A stretch of DNA of 33,961 nucleotides from a virus (Duplodnaviria > Heunggongvirae > Uroviricota > Caudoviricetes). A program made the position numbers and the translations under genes. The notes under the pieces are model-generated. The model was not told where the DNA came from. It saw only the letters and a program-made list of their open reading frames with translations, and did no database searches. Of this stretch, positions 2,744 to 11,428 are shown one piece after another. The stretch covers positions 1 to 33,961 of the IMG/VR virus record IMGVR_UViG_2636415959_000001; one strand, given 5' to 3'. Numbering within the stretch: the stretch's first letter is position 1; each line of letters opens with the position of its first letter.

Positions 2744-2964
2744 CGTGTCGCCTCTCGTTGAATTGTCTTGTAGGCTCGCAACATATCGCGAGATTTTCCG
2801 GACAAAACCGTCTTCATGAAGAACATTCCACTACGGTTTGCAACTATTCCTGGTGTGCAGAGCAGCGTGGCGTCTACCACGCGGTTATGTTTACGGAACT
2901 CAAACACAGTGCTGGTGATCACGATGTTCGCTACGGCGCCATAGTCCTGATATTCGATTTTCAT
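2740..2964 (-). CDS. Hypothetical early protein (74 aa)
   Basis: Small ORF with 4-nt overlaps to both neighbours. Confidence 0.45.
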   Translation of the reverse strand: MKIEYQDYGAVANIVITSTVFEFRKHNRVVDATLLCTPGIVANRSGMFFMKTVLSGKSRDMLRAYKTIQREATR

Positions 2965-3527
2965 GCCAGATGCTCCTCAATAATTTTGAAAGCATCATCA
3001 CGGCATGGCATCACGACGAACTCAGGATTACCGTATGCAGTGTTGATCACTGGATCGAACTGAATGCGAACCGCTCCAGCCTCACCGGAAGGGCGTAACT
3101 GGATGGGAATAAACTTCCGCTCGCGACCAAACATCTTTTCCGGATAACTGAGGTATTCAGCCCGGATAACCGGATTGATACTGAAATCCACTTTTTTCGG
3201 GATGACGCGTTCCATATCAGGAAAGCGACCATCAACAAGTTTGATGCCGGTGATCGAAATCCGGCGTTCGAATGCGTCGCGGTGAATGGCAAACGCTTCT
3301 TTGTTAAATACCAGTTCAGTGGTTTCCGCTTTCGCCGGAACCGGCCCTTCAAACTGGACGATGATGTTTTTCTTCGTCCGGATGCCGTGCTCCATGCGCA
3401 GGGCTACATGCCCGTTAGTCGACTCGATATATTTCGGAGTGATGTGCACACCATTCAGGTAGTAACGGACATCATTTTTTGCTGCGCATACCAGAGCTGC
3501 GCGAATAAGTTTCGACTGGAGGATCAT
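2961..3527 (-). CDS. Truncated DNA polymerase III beta sliding clamp (DnaN)-like protein
   Basis: 188 aa; motifs ..NDVRYYLNGVHI.., ..KLVDGRFPDMERVIPKK.. and C-terminal ..FVVMPCR.. parallel E. coli DnaN segments (..HQDVRYYLNGMLF.., ..KLVDGRFPDYRRVLPKN.., ..YVVMPMRL) as I recall them; covers roughly clamp domain II and part of III only. Confidence 0.6.
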   Translation of the reverse strand: MILQSKLIRAALVCAAKNDVRYYLNGVHITPKYIESTNGHVALRMEHGIRTKKNIIVQFEGPVPAKAETTELVFNKEAFAIHRDAFERRISITGIKLVDGRFPDMERVIPKKVDFSINPVIRAEYLSYPEKMFGRERKFIPIQLRPSGEAGAVRIQFDPVINTAYGNPEFVVMPCRDDAFKIIEEHLA

Positions 3528-5328: not shown

Positions 5329-5715
5329 TCATACGAAGCGCCTCACAGCTAAAGAAGCGACTACCCGACCATGAATTTTGATATCTTTCAGCTCATCGGT
5401 ATTGAGGGTGAAGGTTTCGTAATGATGGTTGTCCGAAATAATTTTCAATGAACCACAAACTAATGGCTCAACTCTCTTAATAAAAAGGCACGGACGGCCA
5501 AATACATCCATCGTATAAACATAAATGCCAGGGGTTAGCGTGCGGCCACCGCAATCAACGAAAGCCACAACCTCACATGGTTCGATGGTCGGCTGCATTG
5601 AGTCTCCCTCCATCATGCAGCTCTTAACACGGTTACCAAAGTCATTAATGTTGTCAGAGCCGAACAGCATTTGAGGTGTTTTAATTGGCTGATTAATTGC
5701 GATAGCGTTTTGCAT
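5329..5715 (-). CDS. Standalone S24 (LexA/CI/UmuD-type) peptidase-domain protein without HTH
   Basis: 128 aa; GDSMQP serine motif and downstream ..LFIKRVE.. lysine motif parallel the C-terminal domain of the adjacent CI (..GNSMEPVI.. / ..GWKRLKI..); no N-terminal DNA-binding domain; RBS GAGGAA 7 nt upstream. Confidence 0.6.
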   Translation of the reverse strand: MQNAIAINQPIKTPQMLFGSDNINDFGNRVKSCMMEGDSMQPTIEPCEVVAFVDCGGRTLTPGIYVYTMDVFGRPCLFIKRVEPLVCGSLKIISDNHHYETFTLNTDELKDIKIHGRVVASLAVRRFV

Positions 5716-6160: not shown

Positions 6161-6203
6161 AATAATAGATTTCTTATGTATTTGTTATTGAAGATTATTT
6201 TAG

Positions 6204-6244
6204 TAATAAAAAAGCCGACACTATGGTCGGCTTGGTGCTTTTTT
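6204..6244 (-). terminator. Intrinsic terminator downstream of cI
   Basis: Stem GCCGAC / GTCGGC (6214-6219 / 6226-6231), 6-nt loop, followed on the minus strand by a T-run. Confidence 0.55.
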
Positions 6245-6253
6245 GGTAGCGGA

Positions 6254-6946
6254 TCAGAAGATTGTTGATACCCAAAACAGCCTTCCTAAAACCTCAAGAC
6301 TATCCATGTCTACTTCTTCGTCAGGGTATTCATCAGAGTTATAGCTTCTGATTGTCACCTTGTCTGGCCCAGATCTGTAGAGGATTTTTAACCTTTTCCA
6401 TCCACCTTGGTTGATGCCGTAAATTTTACCATCAACGATACGCTTGTCATGGCAGTTTATAGCAACAGTAGAGCCATCAGCGATCACTGGCTCCATGCTA
6501 TTCCCGTGTGCAGCAAAGCATAGAACGCCATCACCATCACTATTAGCTCCCACCTTTCGCAATGTTGCTTTGGAAAACCTAAGTTTTTTGCCATTGTAAT
6601 CATCATTAAGAGCGCTGCCATCTCCACATGCGAACTCGATATCCTTCAAGTAAGGCACCTCTACCTCATCATCCTCAAGCGGCGTTTGCTTATCCCATGG
6701 ATCTATACCAAACATCCTTTGTTCTGGAGTTTTTGCGGGCCCCATGGTGCCTTCACCAGTGCTTAACCATATTGGATCTACATCCAACGCTTTGGCTATA
6801 TCCACGATTTTTCCGCTGGACTGGGCTTTTCCTGAGGTTAGTTTTTGTATGGCCCCCTGGCTTACCCCAACCCTATGCGCTAATTGACTTTGTGTAGCCC
6901 CGGCATGAGCCATCGCCAGCCTTAGTCTTTCTGCAAGTGTGTTCAT
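6254..6946 (-). CDS. cI: CI-like phage repressor (HTH + S24 peptidase)
   Basis: 230 aa; N-terminal HTH (..QSQLAHRVGVSQGAIQKLTSGK..); C-terminal autocleavage domain (GNSMEP, KRLK); divergent from the cro-like gene. Confidence 0.9.
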   Translation of the reverse strand: MNTLAERLRLAMAHAGATQSQLAHRVGVSQGAIQKLTSGKAQSSGKIVDIAKALDVDPIWLSTGEGTMGPAKTPEQRMFGIDPWDKQTPLEDDEVEVPYLKDIEFACGDGSALNDDYNGKKLRFSKATLRKVGANSDGDGVLCFAAHGNSMEPVIADGSTVAINCHDKRIVDGKIYGINQGGWKRLKILYRSGPDKVTIRSYNSDEYPDEEVDMDSLEVLGRLFWVSTIF

Positions 6947-7072
6947 CTAAGTATCTCCGATTTCTGTGCATATTTAATACCACAGGATTAACCATGGCAA
7001 GCGGATAATACTTGATTAATTATTCCTTTGGTATTATTTTATATCTTTAATATTAATACTAAGGGCTTTGTT
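6947..7072. promoter_or_regulatory. Immunity switch region (OR / PRM / PR-like) between cI and cro
   Basis: 126-bp AT-rich divergent intergenic region with repeated TAATAC / GTATTA half-sites (e.g. 6975-6980, 7007-7012, 7032-7036, 7054-7059). Confidence 0.5.
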
Positions 7073-7315
7073 ATGACTGATGAGGTTTTTGAATCCCCAA
7101 TGGCGAAAGCCGTGTACGTTGCTGGTGGGCAAAGTTCGCTTGCTAAAAAGGTTGGCGTTACGCAAGGAGCGGTCTGGAAGTGGGTCAGGGGGGTCAAGAA
7201 AGTTTCTCCTGTCCATGCAGTAGCAGTCTCAAACGCAGTTAATGGAGTTGTTAAGCCTCATGAACTGCGTCCTGATTTGCCGACTCTTTTCCCACACCCG
7301 GGCAATGAGGTGTGA
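7073..7315 (+). CDS. cro: Cro-like HTH regulator
   Basis: 80 aa from ATG 7073; HTH ..SSLAKKVGVTQGAVWKWVRG..; divergent from cI. Confidence 0.7.
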   Translation: MTDEVFESPMAKAVYVAGGQSSLAKKVGVTQGAVWKWVRGVKKVSPVHAVAVSNAVNGVVKPHELRPDLPTLFPHPGNEV

Positions 7316-7316
7316 T

Positions 7317-7514
7317 ATGTCGCACTCAATCACTACCGAAAACCAAATTAAGCCATTGGATATCGATTATCGCGATCCGCGCGGTGTGATTGTGCATGTC
7401 ACCGGCTGGAATCGGGATAAGCAGCAGGTGTATTTCACCAGGCAGAATTATCCGCATGAGTGCATGCAACCGGTCTGGAAGTTTCAACAGTATTTCAAGA
7501 GGTTAACATCATGA
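7317..7514 (+). CDS. Hypothetical protein (65 aa) between cro and the replication gene
   Basis: ORF starting MSHSITTENQ at 7317; occupies the cII-equivalent position but shows no obvious HTH. Confidence 0.4.
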   Translation: MSHSITTENQIKPLDIDYRDPRGVIVHVTGWNRDKQQVYFTRQNYPHECMQPVWKFQQYFKRLTS

Positions 7515-8434
7515 GCAGCAAACTACAGGGCTATGTCTGGGATGCCTGCGCTGTTTCTGGTGTCAAGGGGACGCGGCTAATGGTTATGGTACGCCTGGCT
7601 GATTATTCCAGTGATGATGGGAAAAGCTATCCTGGCATAAAAACCATTGCCCGCCAACTTGGCGCGGGGGAGAGCACCATACGAACAGCCATTGCTGAAC
7701 TTGAATCAGAGAAATGGCTTCGACGTGAGAATCGCCGGAATGGTAACCGCAATACATCAAATATGTACTTTTTGAATGTCGAAAAACTTGAAGAAATTGC
7801 ACTTCGGGAGAGATCTGCTATTCGTCTGGATCGACGCAAAAACAACCATTTTGACCCGTCAGATTCTGACGTATCGGATTCTGACAAGTCAGATTTTGAC
7901 GCGTCAGAAATGAGTGACTCAAGTGCACTTGACCCGTCAGATTCTGGCAAAAACAACCATTTTGACCCGTCAGATTCTGGGGGACATGATCCACAAGGTT
8001 TAAAACATGATCCACAAGTAAAAGATCATGAACCACAAGAAGTGCGCGCAAAGCGCCAGAAAAAATCTTCTTTCGACCCTGCATGGCTAAAACCTGAAAA
8101 CGTCAGCGCTGAAATCTGGCTGGACTGGATTAAATTTCGCCGGGAGAAGCGTCAACCGCTGACGGAAACAACCTGCGCATACCAGGCTAAGCAGCTTGCA
8201 GGCCATCAGAATGCCGATGAAGTGATCCGACGCTCAATTGCTGGAGGCTGGCAGGGATTGTTCCCGGATCGTGTGCCCAACAAGCCCGCAATGTCACTAG
8301 CTGAAAACGAAACGCTGACCGCAAGTCAACCGCCAGCTGGGTCATGGTGCACACCATCTGGAGATGGAACAGCGGAGGTATTTATCAACCAGGCCGCTAT
8401 CGAGCGCATGAAGCGCGGGAGTTATCGCCCATGA
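7511..8434 (+). CDS. Replication initiation protein (lambda O-like role) with internal iteron-encoded repeats
   Basis: 307 aa from ATG 7511; N-terminal winged-helix-like region; central low-complexity KNNHFDPSDSD repeats encoded by DNA iterons; conserved C-terminal region. Confidence 0.65.
   Translation: MSSKLQGYVWDACAVSGVKGTRLMVMVRLADYSSDDGKSYPGIKTIARQLGAGESTIRTAIAELESEKWLRRENRRNGNRNTSNMYFLNVEKLEEIALRERSAIRLDRRKNNHFDPSDSDVSDSDKSDFDASEMSDSSALDPSDSGKNNHFDPSDSGGHDPQGLKHDPQVKDHEPQEVRAKRQKKSSFDPAWLKPENVSAEIWLDWIKFRREKRQPLTETTCAYQAKQLAGHQNADEVIRRSIAGGWQGLFPDRVPNKPAMSLAENETLTASQPPAGSWCTPSGDGTAEVFINQAAIERMKRGSYRP
7836..8040. repeat. Iteron array (putative replication origin) inside the replication initiator gene
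   Basis: 33-bp direct repeat GCAAAAACAACCATTTTGACCCGTCAGATTCTG at 7836-7868 and 7947-7979; further ~15-bp GTCAGATTCTGAC-like units; CATGATCCACAAG repeats at 7985-8040. Confidence 0.65.
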
Positions 8435-8540
8435 AATCATTCCTCAAGCGTGTGCTGGTGGCTGGATATAATCACGGCGTTCTGAGCGAGGGATTCGTGA
8501 CATGGTGTTTTGTTAAATTTGATTTACGGAGTGAGTGAGC

Positions 8541-10412
8541 ATGACGCCCGCCGAACTTTCAGAAAAATTATGGGACAACGCCGAAAGGGTTGCAAAGTAC
8601 CTGCTGCCAAAAGGTCACCTGGAAGGCAAAGAATGGTGTGTTGGGAATATCAACGGTGACGCCGGAAAGAGCCTTAAAATTAACATCGGTGGCAAAAAAA
8701 CGTGGGCAGACTTCGCCAGCGGCGACAGTGGTGATCTGCTTGATTTGTGGGTGTTGGTACGCAACTGCCAGCTGCATGATGCGATGCGTGAGGCAAAAGA
8801 ATTTCTCGGTCTGAAAGACGACGATCACCATTTCGAGGCGAAGAAAAAAACATTCTCCAGGCCGACGAAGAAGGGCGTGAAAAAAGCGAGCAATTGTTAC
8901 GGTTATCTGGCTTCGCGTGGTATCACCCGAGAGACAGTGGATCTGTTCCGGGTATCTGATGCGGTGGTCTGGTATCACGATGAAAATCGCGAAGTACCCG
9001 CCGTGGCATTCCCGTACATCCGGAACGGCGAACTGCTTCAAGTAAAACGCATCGGTACTGAACGACCAAACGGCAAAAAGATAATTATGGCTGAGGCGGA
9101 TTGCGAGCCATGTCTCTTTGGTTGGCAGGCCCTGGACAAATCCACGCGTCTGGTCGTTCTGTGCGAAGGCGAGATTGATTGTATGACCTTCACGCAGCTT
9201 GGTTACGACGCACTTTCTGTTCCCTTTGGCGGCGGCAAGGGTGCCAAACAGCAGTGGATTGAATATGAGTACCACAATCTGGATCGCTTTCAGGAGATCT
9301 GGCTTTGCCTGGATAACGACGATGTCGGCCGTGAAGCTGCAAAGGAAATTGCCAGACGACTTGGCGAGCATCGCTGCCGCATGGTTGAACTCCCGCACAA
9401 GGATATCAACGATTGCCTGATGAGCGGCATGGACAGTGAGTCCATCCTGGAGCACATGGAACGCGCTAAATTTTTCGATCCAGATGAACTGTGCTCGGCA
9501 GGTGATTTACTTCAGGAAACCATTGAAGCGTTTGAGCATCGCGATGTTGGCTTGTTCACCAGCCCATGGACCTCGCTGAATTACAATTTCAAATTTCGCG
9601 CCGGAGAACTGACGCTGGTAAATGGCGTGAATGGTCACGGCAAGACCGAACTGGTTGGCCATATCGCAGTTGCTGCTATGAATCAGGGGATTCGGACGTG
9701 CATCGCCTCTCTGGAACTGAAGCCAGGGAAAATGTTGGCCCGCCTGACGCGGCAGACTATCTGTACCGCATCACCGAAACGCGAAGAAATCGTTATGACG
9801 AACGAATGGTTCTCCGATCGTCTGTGGGTGTTCAAACTCACCGGCACCGCGAAAGCTGGCCGTCTGCTGGAAATCTTCGCCTATGCCCGGCGTCGGTATG
9901 GAATCGATCTGTTCGTTATCGACAACCTGGCGAAATGCGGGCTCGATGAGGAGGACTACGGCGGACAGAAAGAATTTATCGACACCCTGTGTGACTTCAA
10001 AAACGAACATAACTGTCACGTCCTTCTGGTGACGCACGCCCGCAAAACCAACGAAGCGGCACCGACCGGGAAAATGGACGTCAAAGGCACCGGCGCATTA
10101 ACCGATATGCCTGATAACGTTATGTCCGTCTGGCGCAACATTCCCCGCGAACTGGCACAACGTAAGGCTGAAAAAATGGGATACGAAAGCCTGGATAAGG
10201 ATGAGCAGGCAGCGCTCCAGATGCCAGCTTCAATGATTCGCCTGCTCAAACAACGCGAAGGTGAGGGGTGGGTTGGTGATATTGGCGCAAATTTTGATAC
10301 CCGTTCACACCAGTTTCTGGAAGGAGAAAAACAACCATTTAACTATCTGGTCGGTAAGCCTCAGAGCGAGGTGGATCTTGAATGGGAAGCAGGCAACGTT
10401 ACGAGGTACTGA
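8541..10412 (+). CDS. Bifunctional DNA primase / DnaB-family (SF4) helicase, T7 gp4-like architecture
   Basis: N-terminal primase-like region and Toprim-like motif (..VVLCEGEIDCMTF..); C-terminal Walker A-like GVNGHGKTE and Walker B-like DLFVIDNL; ATG 8541 preferred over GTG 8535. Confidence 0.8.
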   Translation: MTPAELSEKLWDNAERVAKYLLPKGHLEGKEWCVGNINGDAGKSLKINIGGKKTWADFASGDSGDLLDLWVLVRNCQLHDAMREAKEFLGLKDDDHHFEAKKKTFSRPTKKGVKKASNCYGYLASRGITRETVDLFRVSDAVVWYHDENREVPAVAFPYIRNGELLQVKRIGTERPNGKKIIMAEADCEPCLFGWQALDKSTRLVVLCEGEIDCMTFTQLGYDALSVPFGGGKGAKQQWIEYEYHNLDRFQEIWLCLDNDDVGREAAKEIARRLGEHRCRMVELPHKDINDCLMSGMDSESILEHMERAKFFDPDELCSAGDLLQETIEAFEHRDVGLFTSPWTSLNYNFKFRAGELTLVNGVNGHGKTELVGHIAVAAMNQGIRTCIASLELKPGKMLARLTRQTICTASPKREEIVMTNEWFSDRLWVFKLTGTAKAGRLLEIFAYARRRYGIDLFVIDNLAKCGLDEEDYGGQKEFIDTLCDFKNEHNCHVLLVTHARKTNEAAPTGKMDVKGTGALTDMPDNVMSVWRNIPRELAQRKAEKMGYESLDKDEQAALQMPASMIRLLKQREGEGWVGDIGANFDTRSHQFLEGEKQPFNYLVGKPQSEVDLEWEAGNVTRY

Positions 10413-10414
10413 GC

Positions 10415-10603
10415 ATGACAAACGAAATTTTAAAAGAAGCCATTGAAAACTATCAGCACCTGAAATCGCAGGTTCGCCAGCAGGAAGAAGAAGACGATGG
10501 CATTGAGTATTTCGGTGGGGTTGATACGGATTTATTTGAACGGTTCATGTTTGCCAAAAGTCAGCTTCAGGAGCTGATTAACCCGATGATTATTTTGCGA
10601 TGA
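10415..10603 (+). CDS. Hypothetical small protein (62 aa)
   Basis: ORF from ATG 10415 directly after the primase-helicase stop. Confidence 0.4.
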   Translation: MTNEILKEAIENYQHLKSQVRQQEEEDDGIEYFGGVDTDLFERFMFAKSQLQELINPMIILR

Positions 10604-10737
10604 AGTATAAGGTGTCGCACCTTAACAACGAGATCGGGGCGCTGATACTAGAAAATATCATTCTTAAAAATGAGGTCGCCAGGTTAGGCGGCAATACTGA
10701 TTTTTTGGGTAATGTGGACGTTGAGGGGAAAGCATGA
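10600..10737 (+). CDS. Hypothetical small protein (45 aa), below ORF-track cutoff
   Basis: Hand translation MKYKVSHLNNEIGALILENIILKNEVARLGGNTDFLGNVDVEGKA; start overlaps the previous stop (ATGA) and its stop overlaps the Q start (ATGA). Confidence 0.35.
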   Translation: MKYKVSHLNNEIGALILENIILKNEVARLGGNTDFLGNVDVEGKA

Positions 10738-11357
10738 AACTGGAAGCAGCTCTTAAACATTTCAGTCCTCAGGGAATGCACATCAGCGACGACGTGAAAG
10801 GAACTTCGCCGGATCGTCTCACCGGTACAGATGTAATGGCTGCTATGGGGATGGCGCAATCACAAGCCGGATTCGGTATGGCTGCATTCTGCGGCAAGCA
10901 CGAACTCAGCCAGAATGACAAACAAAAGGCTATCAACTATCTGATGCAATTTGCACACAAGGTATCGGGGAAATACCGTGGTGTGGCAAAGCTTGAAGGA
11001 AATACTAAGGCAAAGGTACTGCAAGTGCTCGCAACATTCGCTTATGCGGATTATTGCCGTAGTGCCGCGACGCCGGGCGCAAGATGCAGAGATTGCCACG
11101 GTACAGGCCGTGCGGTTGATATATCAAAAACAGAGCTGTGGGGGAGAGTTGTTGAGAAAGAATGCGGAAGATGCAAAGGTGTCGGCTATTCAAGAATGCC
11201 AGCAAGCGCCGCATATCGCGCTGTAACGATGCTAATCCCAAACCTTACCCAACCCACCTGGTCACGCACTGTTAAGCCGCTGTATGACGCTCTGGTGGTG
11301 CAATGCCACAAAGAAGAGTCAATCGCAGACAACATATTGAATGCGGTCACACGTTAG
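10734..11357 (+). CDS. Q: Late-gene antiterminator Q (lambda Q-like)
   Basis: 207 aa; C-terminal two thirds (..GTDVMAAMGMAQSQAGFG..CRDCHGTGRAVD..CGRCKGVGY..ADNILNAVTR) matches lambda Q as I recall it; zinc-finger Cys pairs. Confidence 0.8.
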   Translation: MKLEAALKHFSPQGMHISDDVKGTSPDRLTGTDVMAAMGMAQSQAGFGMAAFCGKHELSQNDKQKAINYLMQFAHKVSGKYRGVAKLEGNTKAKVLQVLATFAYADYCRSAATPGARCRDCHGTGRAVDISKTELWGRVVEKECGRCKGVGYSRMPASAAYRAVTMLIPNLTQPTWSRTVKPLYDALVVQCHKEESIADNILNAVTR

Positions 11358-11399
11358 CTGCATGATTGCCACGGATGGCAACATATTAACGGCATGATA

Positions 11400-11428
11400 T
11401 TGACTTATTGAATAAAATTGGGTAAATT
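11400..11428 (+). promoter_or_regulatory. Late promoter PR'-like (Q-modified promoter)
   Basis: TTGACT (11400-11405), 17-bp spacer, TAAATT (11423-11428), followed by TGACTCAACGATGG; matches the lambda PR' region as I recall it. Confidence 0.6.

Follow-up and report, generated by a model that had tools for sequence, protein, structure and literature searches.

The window analysed here, a tailed-phage sequence of 33,961 nucleotides (Caudoviricetes; IMG/VR virus record IMGVR_UViG_2636415959_000001, positions 1 to 33,961), carries at 8541-10412 on the plus strand an open reading frame (ORF) of 623 amino acids (aa). By sequence, its product is a homologue of gp4 of phage T7 and of mitochondrial Twinkle, and belongs to the family of phage ES18 gp61 found in lambdoid/P22-like prophages of Enterobacterales. 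We consider it probable (at roughly 80%) that the protein combines the replicative helicase of the phage with a DnaG-type primase and is recruited by an iteron-binding initiator, with the helicase ring unwinding and priming the DNA and host DNA polymerase III extending the primers. This reading is based on observed features, namely the homology and domain architecture of the protein, its intact catalytic residues, the iterons, a conserved gene order, and the co-variation of the initiator tail with the helicase subtype; from these we infer every biochemical step.

The primase-helicase ORF runs from ATG 8541 to the stop at 10412. A Shine-Dalgarno-like GGAG (8528-8531) precedes this ATG by 9 nt but lies just 3 nt from an alternative GTG start at 8535. 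The GTG overlaps the stop of the preceding 35-aa ORF, as does the annotated start of the ES18 gene, but because of the spacing it was judged less likely and ATG 8541 was preferred. In Pfam, Toprim_2 (aa 206-293, 9.4e-13) and AAA_25 (aa 352-504, 5.8e-11) were both matched above cutoff, and PHROG 239 ('DNA primase/helicase') covered aa 5-598 at 9e-142. A phmmer search of the PDB matched T7 gp4 (5ikn, 6n7i) with E=2e-27 and ~26% identity, and Twinkle at 4.5e-15. One phmmer alignment paired residues 115-535 of the query with residues 73-507 of gp4, i.e. with primase domain, linker and helicase, and the linker between the domains was itself conserved (FFDPDELCSA aligned with WIPDGVVSA). The Pfam, PHROG 239 and gp4-spanning phmmer matches thus place primase and helicase domains in one polypeptide, far above chance.

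An AlphaFold2 model of the protein was generated from a 36-sequence alignment (mean predicted local distance difference test score 78.4). Foldseek ranked human Twinkle and T7 gp4 at the top for this model (E ~4e-23), and Aquifex DnaG, with its zinc-binding domain (ZBD) plus RNA polymerase domain, was matched over 391 columns. Sequence and predicted structure both give the three-domain architecture of gp4/Twinkle: a DnaG-type ZBD fold that lacks the Cys4/Cys3His ligand set (aa 1-90; 8541-8810), a DnaG/gp4-type RNA-polymerase (TOPRIM) primase domain with its acidic metal-binding set intact (aa ~115-300; 8883-9440), and a superfamily 4 (SF4) RecA-fold hexameric helicase domain of the gp4/Twinkle/DnaB type (aa ~346-600; 9576-10340), all on the plus strand. 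The original prediction of a 623-aa fused primase-helicase at 8541-10412, made from the sequence alone, is borne out by Pfam, PHROG 239, phmmer and the predicted structure, with primase (Toprim_2) and SF4 helicase domains supported in the same chain.

The catalytic residues were mapped by MAFFT alignment. The gp4 primase residues R84, K122, K128, E157, D161, D207, D209 and D237 correspond to R126, K169, K179, E209, D213, D258, D260 and D288 of the window protein, and the gp4 helicase residues K318, E343, D424, H465 and R504 to K368, E392, D461, H499 and R532. The mapped residues were invariant across 36 homologues, down to ~60% identity. Present among them are the acidic metal-binding residues of TOPRIM (gp4 E157, D207, D209 and D237), and the SF4 motifs H1 (Walker A), H1a (catalytic Glu), H2 (Walker B), H3 (His) and H4/arginine finger were all found. 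Relative to gp4, the window protein contains a 30-aa insertion at aa 535-565, which derails the automatic alignment; its placement of gp4 R522 opposite Ala558 was therefore rejected and the arginine finger was assigned by eye. The equivalent of gp4 R522 is most likely the invariant KQR572, an assignment weaker than those of the other residues. A gp4-like acidic C-terminal tail with a terminal aromatic residue (...NVTRY in the window protein) was also considered and was dropped, as family members vary in their last residue.

The initiator gene (7511-8434, plus strand) encodes a protein of 307 aa that matched Pfam HTH_36 (2.8e-9) and PHROGs 11896, 678 and 391, described as 'primosomal protein' or 'replication initiation O-like', at 1e-33 to 3e-54. 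It consists of an N-terminal winged-helix HTH_36 domain, a central low-complexity linker encoded by the iterons, and a C-terminal domain or tail. The original prediction had called this protein O-like, and the term holds for profile (PHROG 1e-33) and architecture but not for pairwise similarity to lambda O, of which none was found. Its pairing of the helicase with an O-like initiator in place of a lambda P-type loader agrees with the PHROG matches and with a tblastn search in which no lambda P homologue was detected anywhere in the window (best E=4.8). The lambdoid regulatory setting that it proposed was likewise recovered, with CI, Cro-like and Q proteins identified by Pfam and PHROG.

A putative origin lies within the initiator gene at 7848-7990 (repeat families D1-D3). 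Five direct copies of the near-palindromic core GTCAGATTCTG(AC) span 7858-7979, with cores at 7858, 7873 and 7888 (15 bp apart) plus 7936 and 7969. The iteron pattern gave 9 matches compared to 0.79 expected, a number reached in 0 of 100 shuffles. By analogy with the lambda ori inside O and with the rep_origin annotated in ES18, the iterons would serve as the replication origin. A candidate unwinding region adjoins them at 7984-8040 and contains two to three copies of a 21-bp repeat, D4 (ACATGATCCACAAG). This region is locally 68% A+T and has three GATC sites (7988, 8009 and 8024) within 37 bp, compared to 3.9 per kb window-wide. The clustering of GATC recalls the Dam-methylated unwinding elements of oriC, and iterons followed by such a stretch match the arrangement of the lambda ori.

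Between initiator and primase-helicase, at 8431-8538 on the plus strand, lies the gene for a 35-aa microprotein, the equivalent of ES18 gp60 (PHROG 21848, 2.5e-11; sequence MKSFLKRVLVAGYNHGVLSEGFVTWCFVKFDLRSE). Translationally coupled between these two genes, the ORF begins in an ATGA overlap with the initiator stop, and 2 nt separate its end from the ATG of the primase-helicase. Frequently left unannotated, the ORF was detected with a simple test at 76 of 83 loci, whereas by pattern it was found at 83 loci. A median dN/dS (ratio of nonsynonymous to synonymous substitution rates) of 0.27 over 48 unique DNA sequences indicates that the microprotein is conserved under purifying selection. Within the phage collection the peptide was found only directly upstream of the primase-helicase, in 44 of 44 matching records. 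The position of the primase-helicase is fixed as well: at ~80 related loci it follows an iteron-bearing initiator and precedes Q, with translational coupling. In relatives of 40-46% identity, the loci of which lack the 35-aa ORF, the initiator directly adjoins the primase-helicase. At two IMG/VR loci, L072 (4510-5004) and L075 (4480-5004), a free-standing NUMOD4 + HNH_3 homing-endonuclease gene is situated between initiator and primase-helicase.

The initiators preceding this helicase family are mosaic. Clustering of 66 sequences (65 such initiators plus lambda O) resolved at least 8 unrelated N-terminal clusters among the initiators, and a single C-terminal cluster, C1, common to 60 of the 66 sequences; the window initiator is inside C1 and lambda O outside. 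ES18 gp59 is 93.5% identical to lambda O, with the identity confined to the N-terminal domain. The initiator of Stx2a_F403 joins a window-like N-terminus (35% identical to the window's) to an ES18-like C-terminus, and that of coliphage SaltyDalty has an N-terminal domain of cluster N3, different from the window's, followed by the same C-terminal tail. In IMGVR_UViG_2924948657_000009, the primase-helicase is 99% identical to the window's, yet the 409-aa initiator belongs to cluster N4. Since closely similar primase-helicases are combined with differing initiator N-termini, the mosaic joint must lie inside the initiator gene, 5' of the common C-terminal tail, and must be very recent in the latter case.

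The tail motif is short and located at the extreme C-terminus of the initiator. Tail subtype and helicase subtype split exactly: initiators with the tail AEVFINQ...R are paired with helicases 79-99% identical to the window's, and those with GYVFFDR with the ~59-63% group. This tracking suggests that the initiator tail may be a docking motif, much as the C-terminal domain of lambda O binds lambda P. A more elaborate proposal, which we hold tentatively and at clearly less than even odds, is that the Enterobacterales branch uses a dedicated helicase-recruitment system, in which the short tail carried by initiators that are unrelated elsewhere, (A/G)(E/Y)VF(I/F)..., together with the obligatorily linked 35-aa protein, MKxxIKxLLvAGYNHGxLxxxFVxxWF...LR, would load the gp4-like ring at the iteron origin, and priming would occur with a zinc-free ZBD.

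In the mechanism we propose, loss of CI would allow expression of the early-right operon as one block with translational coupling, yielding the Cro-like and DUF4222 proteins, the initiator, the 35-aa protein and the primase-helicase. The N-terminal HTH_36 domain of the initiator would bind the five GTCAGATTCTG iterons in its own gene and destabilise the adjacent A+T/GATC-rich stretch. Its C-terminal tail, possibly with the 35-aa protein, would recruit the primase-helicase directly, in place of the O-P-DnaB route of lambda. The hexameric SF4 ring would then unwind DNA in the 5'->3' direction while the TOPRIM domain synthesises RNA primers, which host DNA polymerase III would extend. The host enzyme is proposed as extender because the scanned ORFs included no phage polymerase; in the left arm, the scan recovered an integrase, an Ant-like protein and a handful of unknown proteins, and neither a polymerase nor a single-stranded DNA-binding protein nor a second helicase. 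On this gene content, it is reasonable to expect replication to be independent of host DnaB, DnaC and DnaG.

Several points weigh against the proposal of a self-sufficient primase-helicase. The searchable literature yields no biochemical study of any member of the subfamily. The DnaB_C match of the protein (aa 352-592) is below the Pfam gathering cutoff (23.3 vs 27 bits), the A+T enrichment beside the iterons is modest (68% over 40 bp), and the co-variation of tail and helicase is confounded by linkage, with the tail coding region ~110 nt from the helicase gene. The N-terminal domain of the family has no Cys4 or Cys3His zinc ligand set, and in T7 gp4 the ZBD cysteines are required for template-directed priming. 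As stated in two reports, the zinc finger of plant Twinkle directs template recognition (PMC10557236), and primase activity was lost in metazoan Twinkle via acquired mutations (PMC9860392).

The N-terminal ZBD fold was recognised by fold comparison only; a profile of aa 1-112 searched against PDB sequences and Pfam at E<=10 returned only noise. The positions of gp4 C17, C20, C36 and C39 are occupied by other residues in the window protein. C76 and H79, both within a helix, are the only conserved candidate ligands, and C33 is variable. Two vestigial cysteines are kept in the relatives of 40-46% identity from Legionella and Coxiellaceae (EWCxG and VWCDF). Membership in the gp4/Twinkle family holds despite the missing ligands, since metazoan Twinkle is in the same state. 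However, the absence of gp4's Cys4 zinc site from the N-terminal domain places primase function in doubt. The protein could instead be a Twinkle-like replicative helicase, the primase part of which, because of the degenerate ZBD, is inactive or only binds DNA, so that host DnaG would prime. The lack of a zinc site and the vestigial cysteines of the distant relatives would fit such a protein, as would the top structural match, human Twinkle, which has the same architecture and has lost primase activity (PMC9860392). In contrast, the invariance of the TOPRIM acidic residues and of the equivalents of gp4 R84, K122 and K128, down to ~60% identity, is hard to explain without catalytic selection, and the ZBD fold is strongly conserved, with 43 of 112 columns invariant among homologues. 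We regard a helicase primed by host DnaG as unlikely, though deserving of serious consideration, and primase activity of the window protein, as judged from its residues, as likely.

A route closer to that of lambda would have the initiator, perhaps via the 35-aa protein, load host DnaB, leaving the gp4-like protein as a primase or accessory factor only. The 35-aa protein does occupy the position of lambda P, without an assigned role, and the subthreshold DnaB_C match might be taken in the same sense. However, the Walker A and B motifs, catalytic glutamate, His499 and both arginines of the SF4 helicase are invariant, and the 35-aa peptide resembles neither P nor DnaC nor loaders of the DnaT type. 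Moreover, the 40-46% relatives without this peptide still have the initiator beside the primase-helicase. We thus consider loading of host DnaB very improbable. A non-replicative function, with the gene as a moron encoding a primase-helicase of defence, anti-defence or satellite type, has a parallel in the TOPRIM + AAA fusions of some defence systems but can be virtually dismissed given the fixed, coupled position between iteron-bearing initiator and Q in ~80 loci and the lack of alternative replication genes found in the window.

Returning to the fused primase-helicase as the phage's own replication enzyme, its module closely resembles that of Salmonella phage ES18, for which the evidence is the GenBank annotation AY736146. 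There, gp59 is given as 'similar to phage lambda gpO' with a rep_origin, gp60 has 35 aa, and gp61 is a 'putative primase/helicase; similar to phage T7 gene 4'. Comparison of related prophages revealed the same trio of initiator, 35-aa protein and gp4-like protein in ES18, epsilon34, g341c, SEN22, mEp043, Sf101, Stx2 phages ('Eru5'), the Anderson typing phages STMP5/17 and hundreds of prophages of Enterobacterales, and the order in ES18 is as in the window: an O-like initiator with internal origin, the 35-aa ORF and a ~625-aa primase/helicase, located 3' of CI, Cro and the CII-position gene. ES18 gp61 is 58.9% identical to the window protein over aa 1-623, and gp60 ~58% identical to the 35-aa protein. 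In contrast, the initiator N-termini are unrelated (HTH_36 in the window, lambda O type in ES18), the tails differ (AEVFINQ... vs GYVFFDR), and ES18 has siphovirus virion genes whereas those of the window are of the SfII/SfV-like myovirus type, 97-98% identical to Shigella phage SfII. SaltyDalty also shares the gene order, with CI, Cro, a hypothetical protein, an O-like initiator, the 35-aa ORF, a 'DNA primase/helicase' and Q.

With T7 gp4 (PDB 1q57, 5ikn, 6n7i), the window protein shares the order of ZBD fold, TOPRIM primase, linker and SF4 helicase in one chain, but it lacks the Cys4 site, has the 30-aa insertion and ends in a different C-terminal tail. Replication of T7 starts at RNA-polymerase promoters, and its gp4 works with a phage-encoded polymerase, gp5. 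In contrast, the replicon of the window is temperate, probably initiator- and iteron-dependent, and has no phage DNA polymerase among the scanned ORFs. The zinc-less ZBD resembles that of metazoan Twinkle (PDB 7t8b/c, 8e2l), but the TOPRIM catalytic residues of the window protein are all kept. Lambda O/P and P22 gp18/gp12 share with the window the early-right operon position, an initiator gene with its own iterons and the two-domain logic of the initiator. The initiator genes of P22 and L contain their own iterons; host DnaB is loaded by P in lambda, and gp12 of P22 is itself a helicase of the DnaB type, lacking a primase (PMC8022706). The window differs in that the initiator is partnered with a gp4-type helicase that carries a fused primase, that a P homologue is missing, and that the C-terminal cluster of the initiator is other than that of lambda O. 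Finally, the 'Eru5' unit of Stx phages, with Stx2a_F403 (AP012529) as representative, is described as having an HTH_36 protein and a 'primase' as replication genes, and the authors state that nothing is known about the replication proteins of such 'Eru' phages (PMC8951638). The window likewise has an HTH_36 initiator and a primase-helicase downstream of cI/cro, and the F403 protein is 62% and 54% identical to the window's in its two halves. However, the F403 protein has 968 aa including an intein, its initiator C-terminus is of ES18 type, and the window is not a Stx phage.

Full-length homologues of the primase-helicase were found in 91 phage records, including ES18, epsilon34, g341c, SEN22, mEp043, Sf101 and several Stx2 phages; the proteins of coliphages SaltyDalty, CharmingMan, LMessi and Fraca are 89-93% identical to the window's. 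Related stretches in IMG/VR number at least 532, including one of 99% identity, and the protein database gave 1,950 matches across Enterobacterales, with the family extending to Legionella and Coxiellaceae. The nearest GTDB species representative was Enterobacter intestinihominis (89%). When 6200-11400 was searched by megablast against 5,426 complete E. coli genomes, only the Q gene was matched (11% coverage). Homologues of ~968 aa (Stx2a_F403, AP012529 3001-5907; P0009, P0101, phages 24B and Min27) contain a Hint + LAGLIDADG intein in the Walker A loop after GVNGHGK. This loop is the classic intein hot spot of DnaB; the window protein is free of an intein. The module was also present in 'Elizabethkingia phage EKP1' (OM284015.1), with 90% identity at the protein level and 88% in the 35-aa peptide. 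As an enterobacterial module is odd for a Bacteroidota host, the host of EKP1 may be misattributed or the sequence a contaminant.

The genes surrounding the module are those of a lambdoid early region. A CI-type repressor (HTH_3 + Peptidase_S24; 6254-6946, minus strand) is divergent from the early-right operon (Pfam Peptidase_S24 7.4e-15, HTH_3 1.3e-8; PHROG 4 'transcriptional repressor' 7e-50). To its left, a 128-aa protein (5329-5715, minus strand) has a Peptidase_S24/CI-like C-terminal domain and no helix-turn-helix (PHROG 6201; Pfam S24 1.3e-6), and looks like a second, truncated repressor-like gene. The first early-right gene (7073-7315, plus strand) encodes a Cro-like small helix-turn-helix regulator of the YdaS/P22_Cro type (Pfam YdaS_toxin 5.5e-18, weak P22_Cro; PHROG 35 7.6e-23). 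It is followed in the CII position by the DUF4222 gene (7317-7514, plus strand; Pfam DUF4222 3.7e-12, PHROG 1343 1e-26), the stop of which overlaps the initiator start (ATGA). Note that the start of the DUF4222 gene was inferred from the PHROG 1343 alignment, which matched aa 36-89 of a 90-aa ORF.

Downstream of the primase-helicase, two ORFs read from the sequence, of 62 aa (10415-10603, plus strand) and 45 aa (10600-10737, plus strand; ATGA overlap with both neighbours), had no Pfam or PHROG match. They alone (10412-10737) connect the replication genes to Q, without the nin region, unlike in ES18, lambda and P22. The Q-type late antiterminator (10734-11357, plus strand; Pfam Antiterm 1.1e-57, PHROG 127 1e-81) is 98% identical at the nucleotide level to Q genes of E. 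coli prophages, and lysis genes come after it. In the left arm, a 188-aa protein (2961-3527, minus strand) matched PHROG 3007 'RusA-like Holliday junction resolvase', and its N-terminus weakly matched polymerase/processivity-factor PHROGs; the RusA-like label is doubtful because a Pfam match was lacking.

In conclusion, a replication module of this type is already known and widely annotated, in ES18 since 2005, in words in a 2023 paper (PMC10307801) and as the Eru5 class in Stx phages. Having been annotated in ES18 and many relatives for so long, it is to be considered ordinary, and the family is common in Salmonella, E. coli/Shigella and Stx phages. The remaining interest lies in the zinc-less primase, the role of the 35-aa partner and the initiator tail as a possible docking site, modest leads that are cheap to address. 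For the annotation of this prophage, the analysis indicates that it encodes a replicative helicase of its own and probably a primase as well, and predicts that it would replicate without host DnaB, DnaC or a P-type loader.

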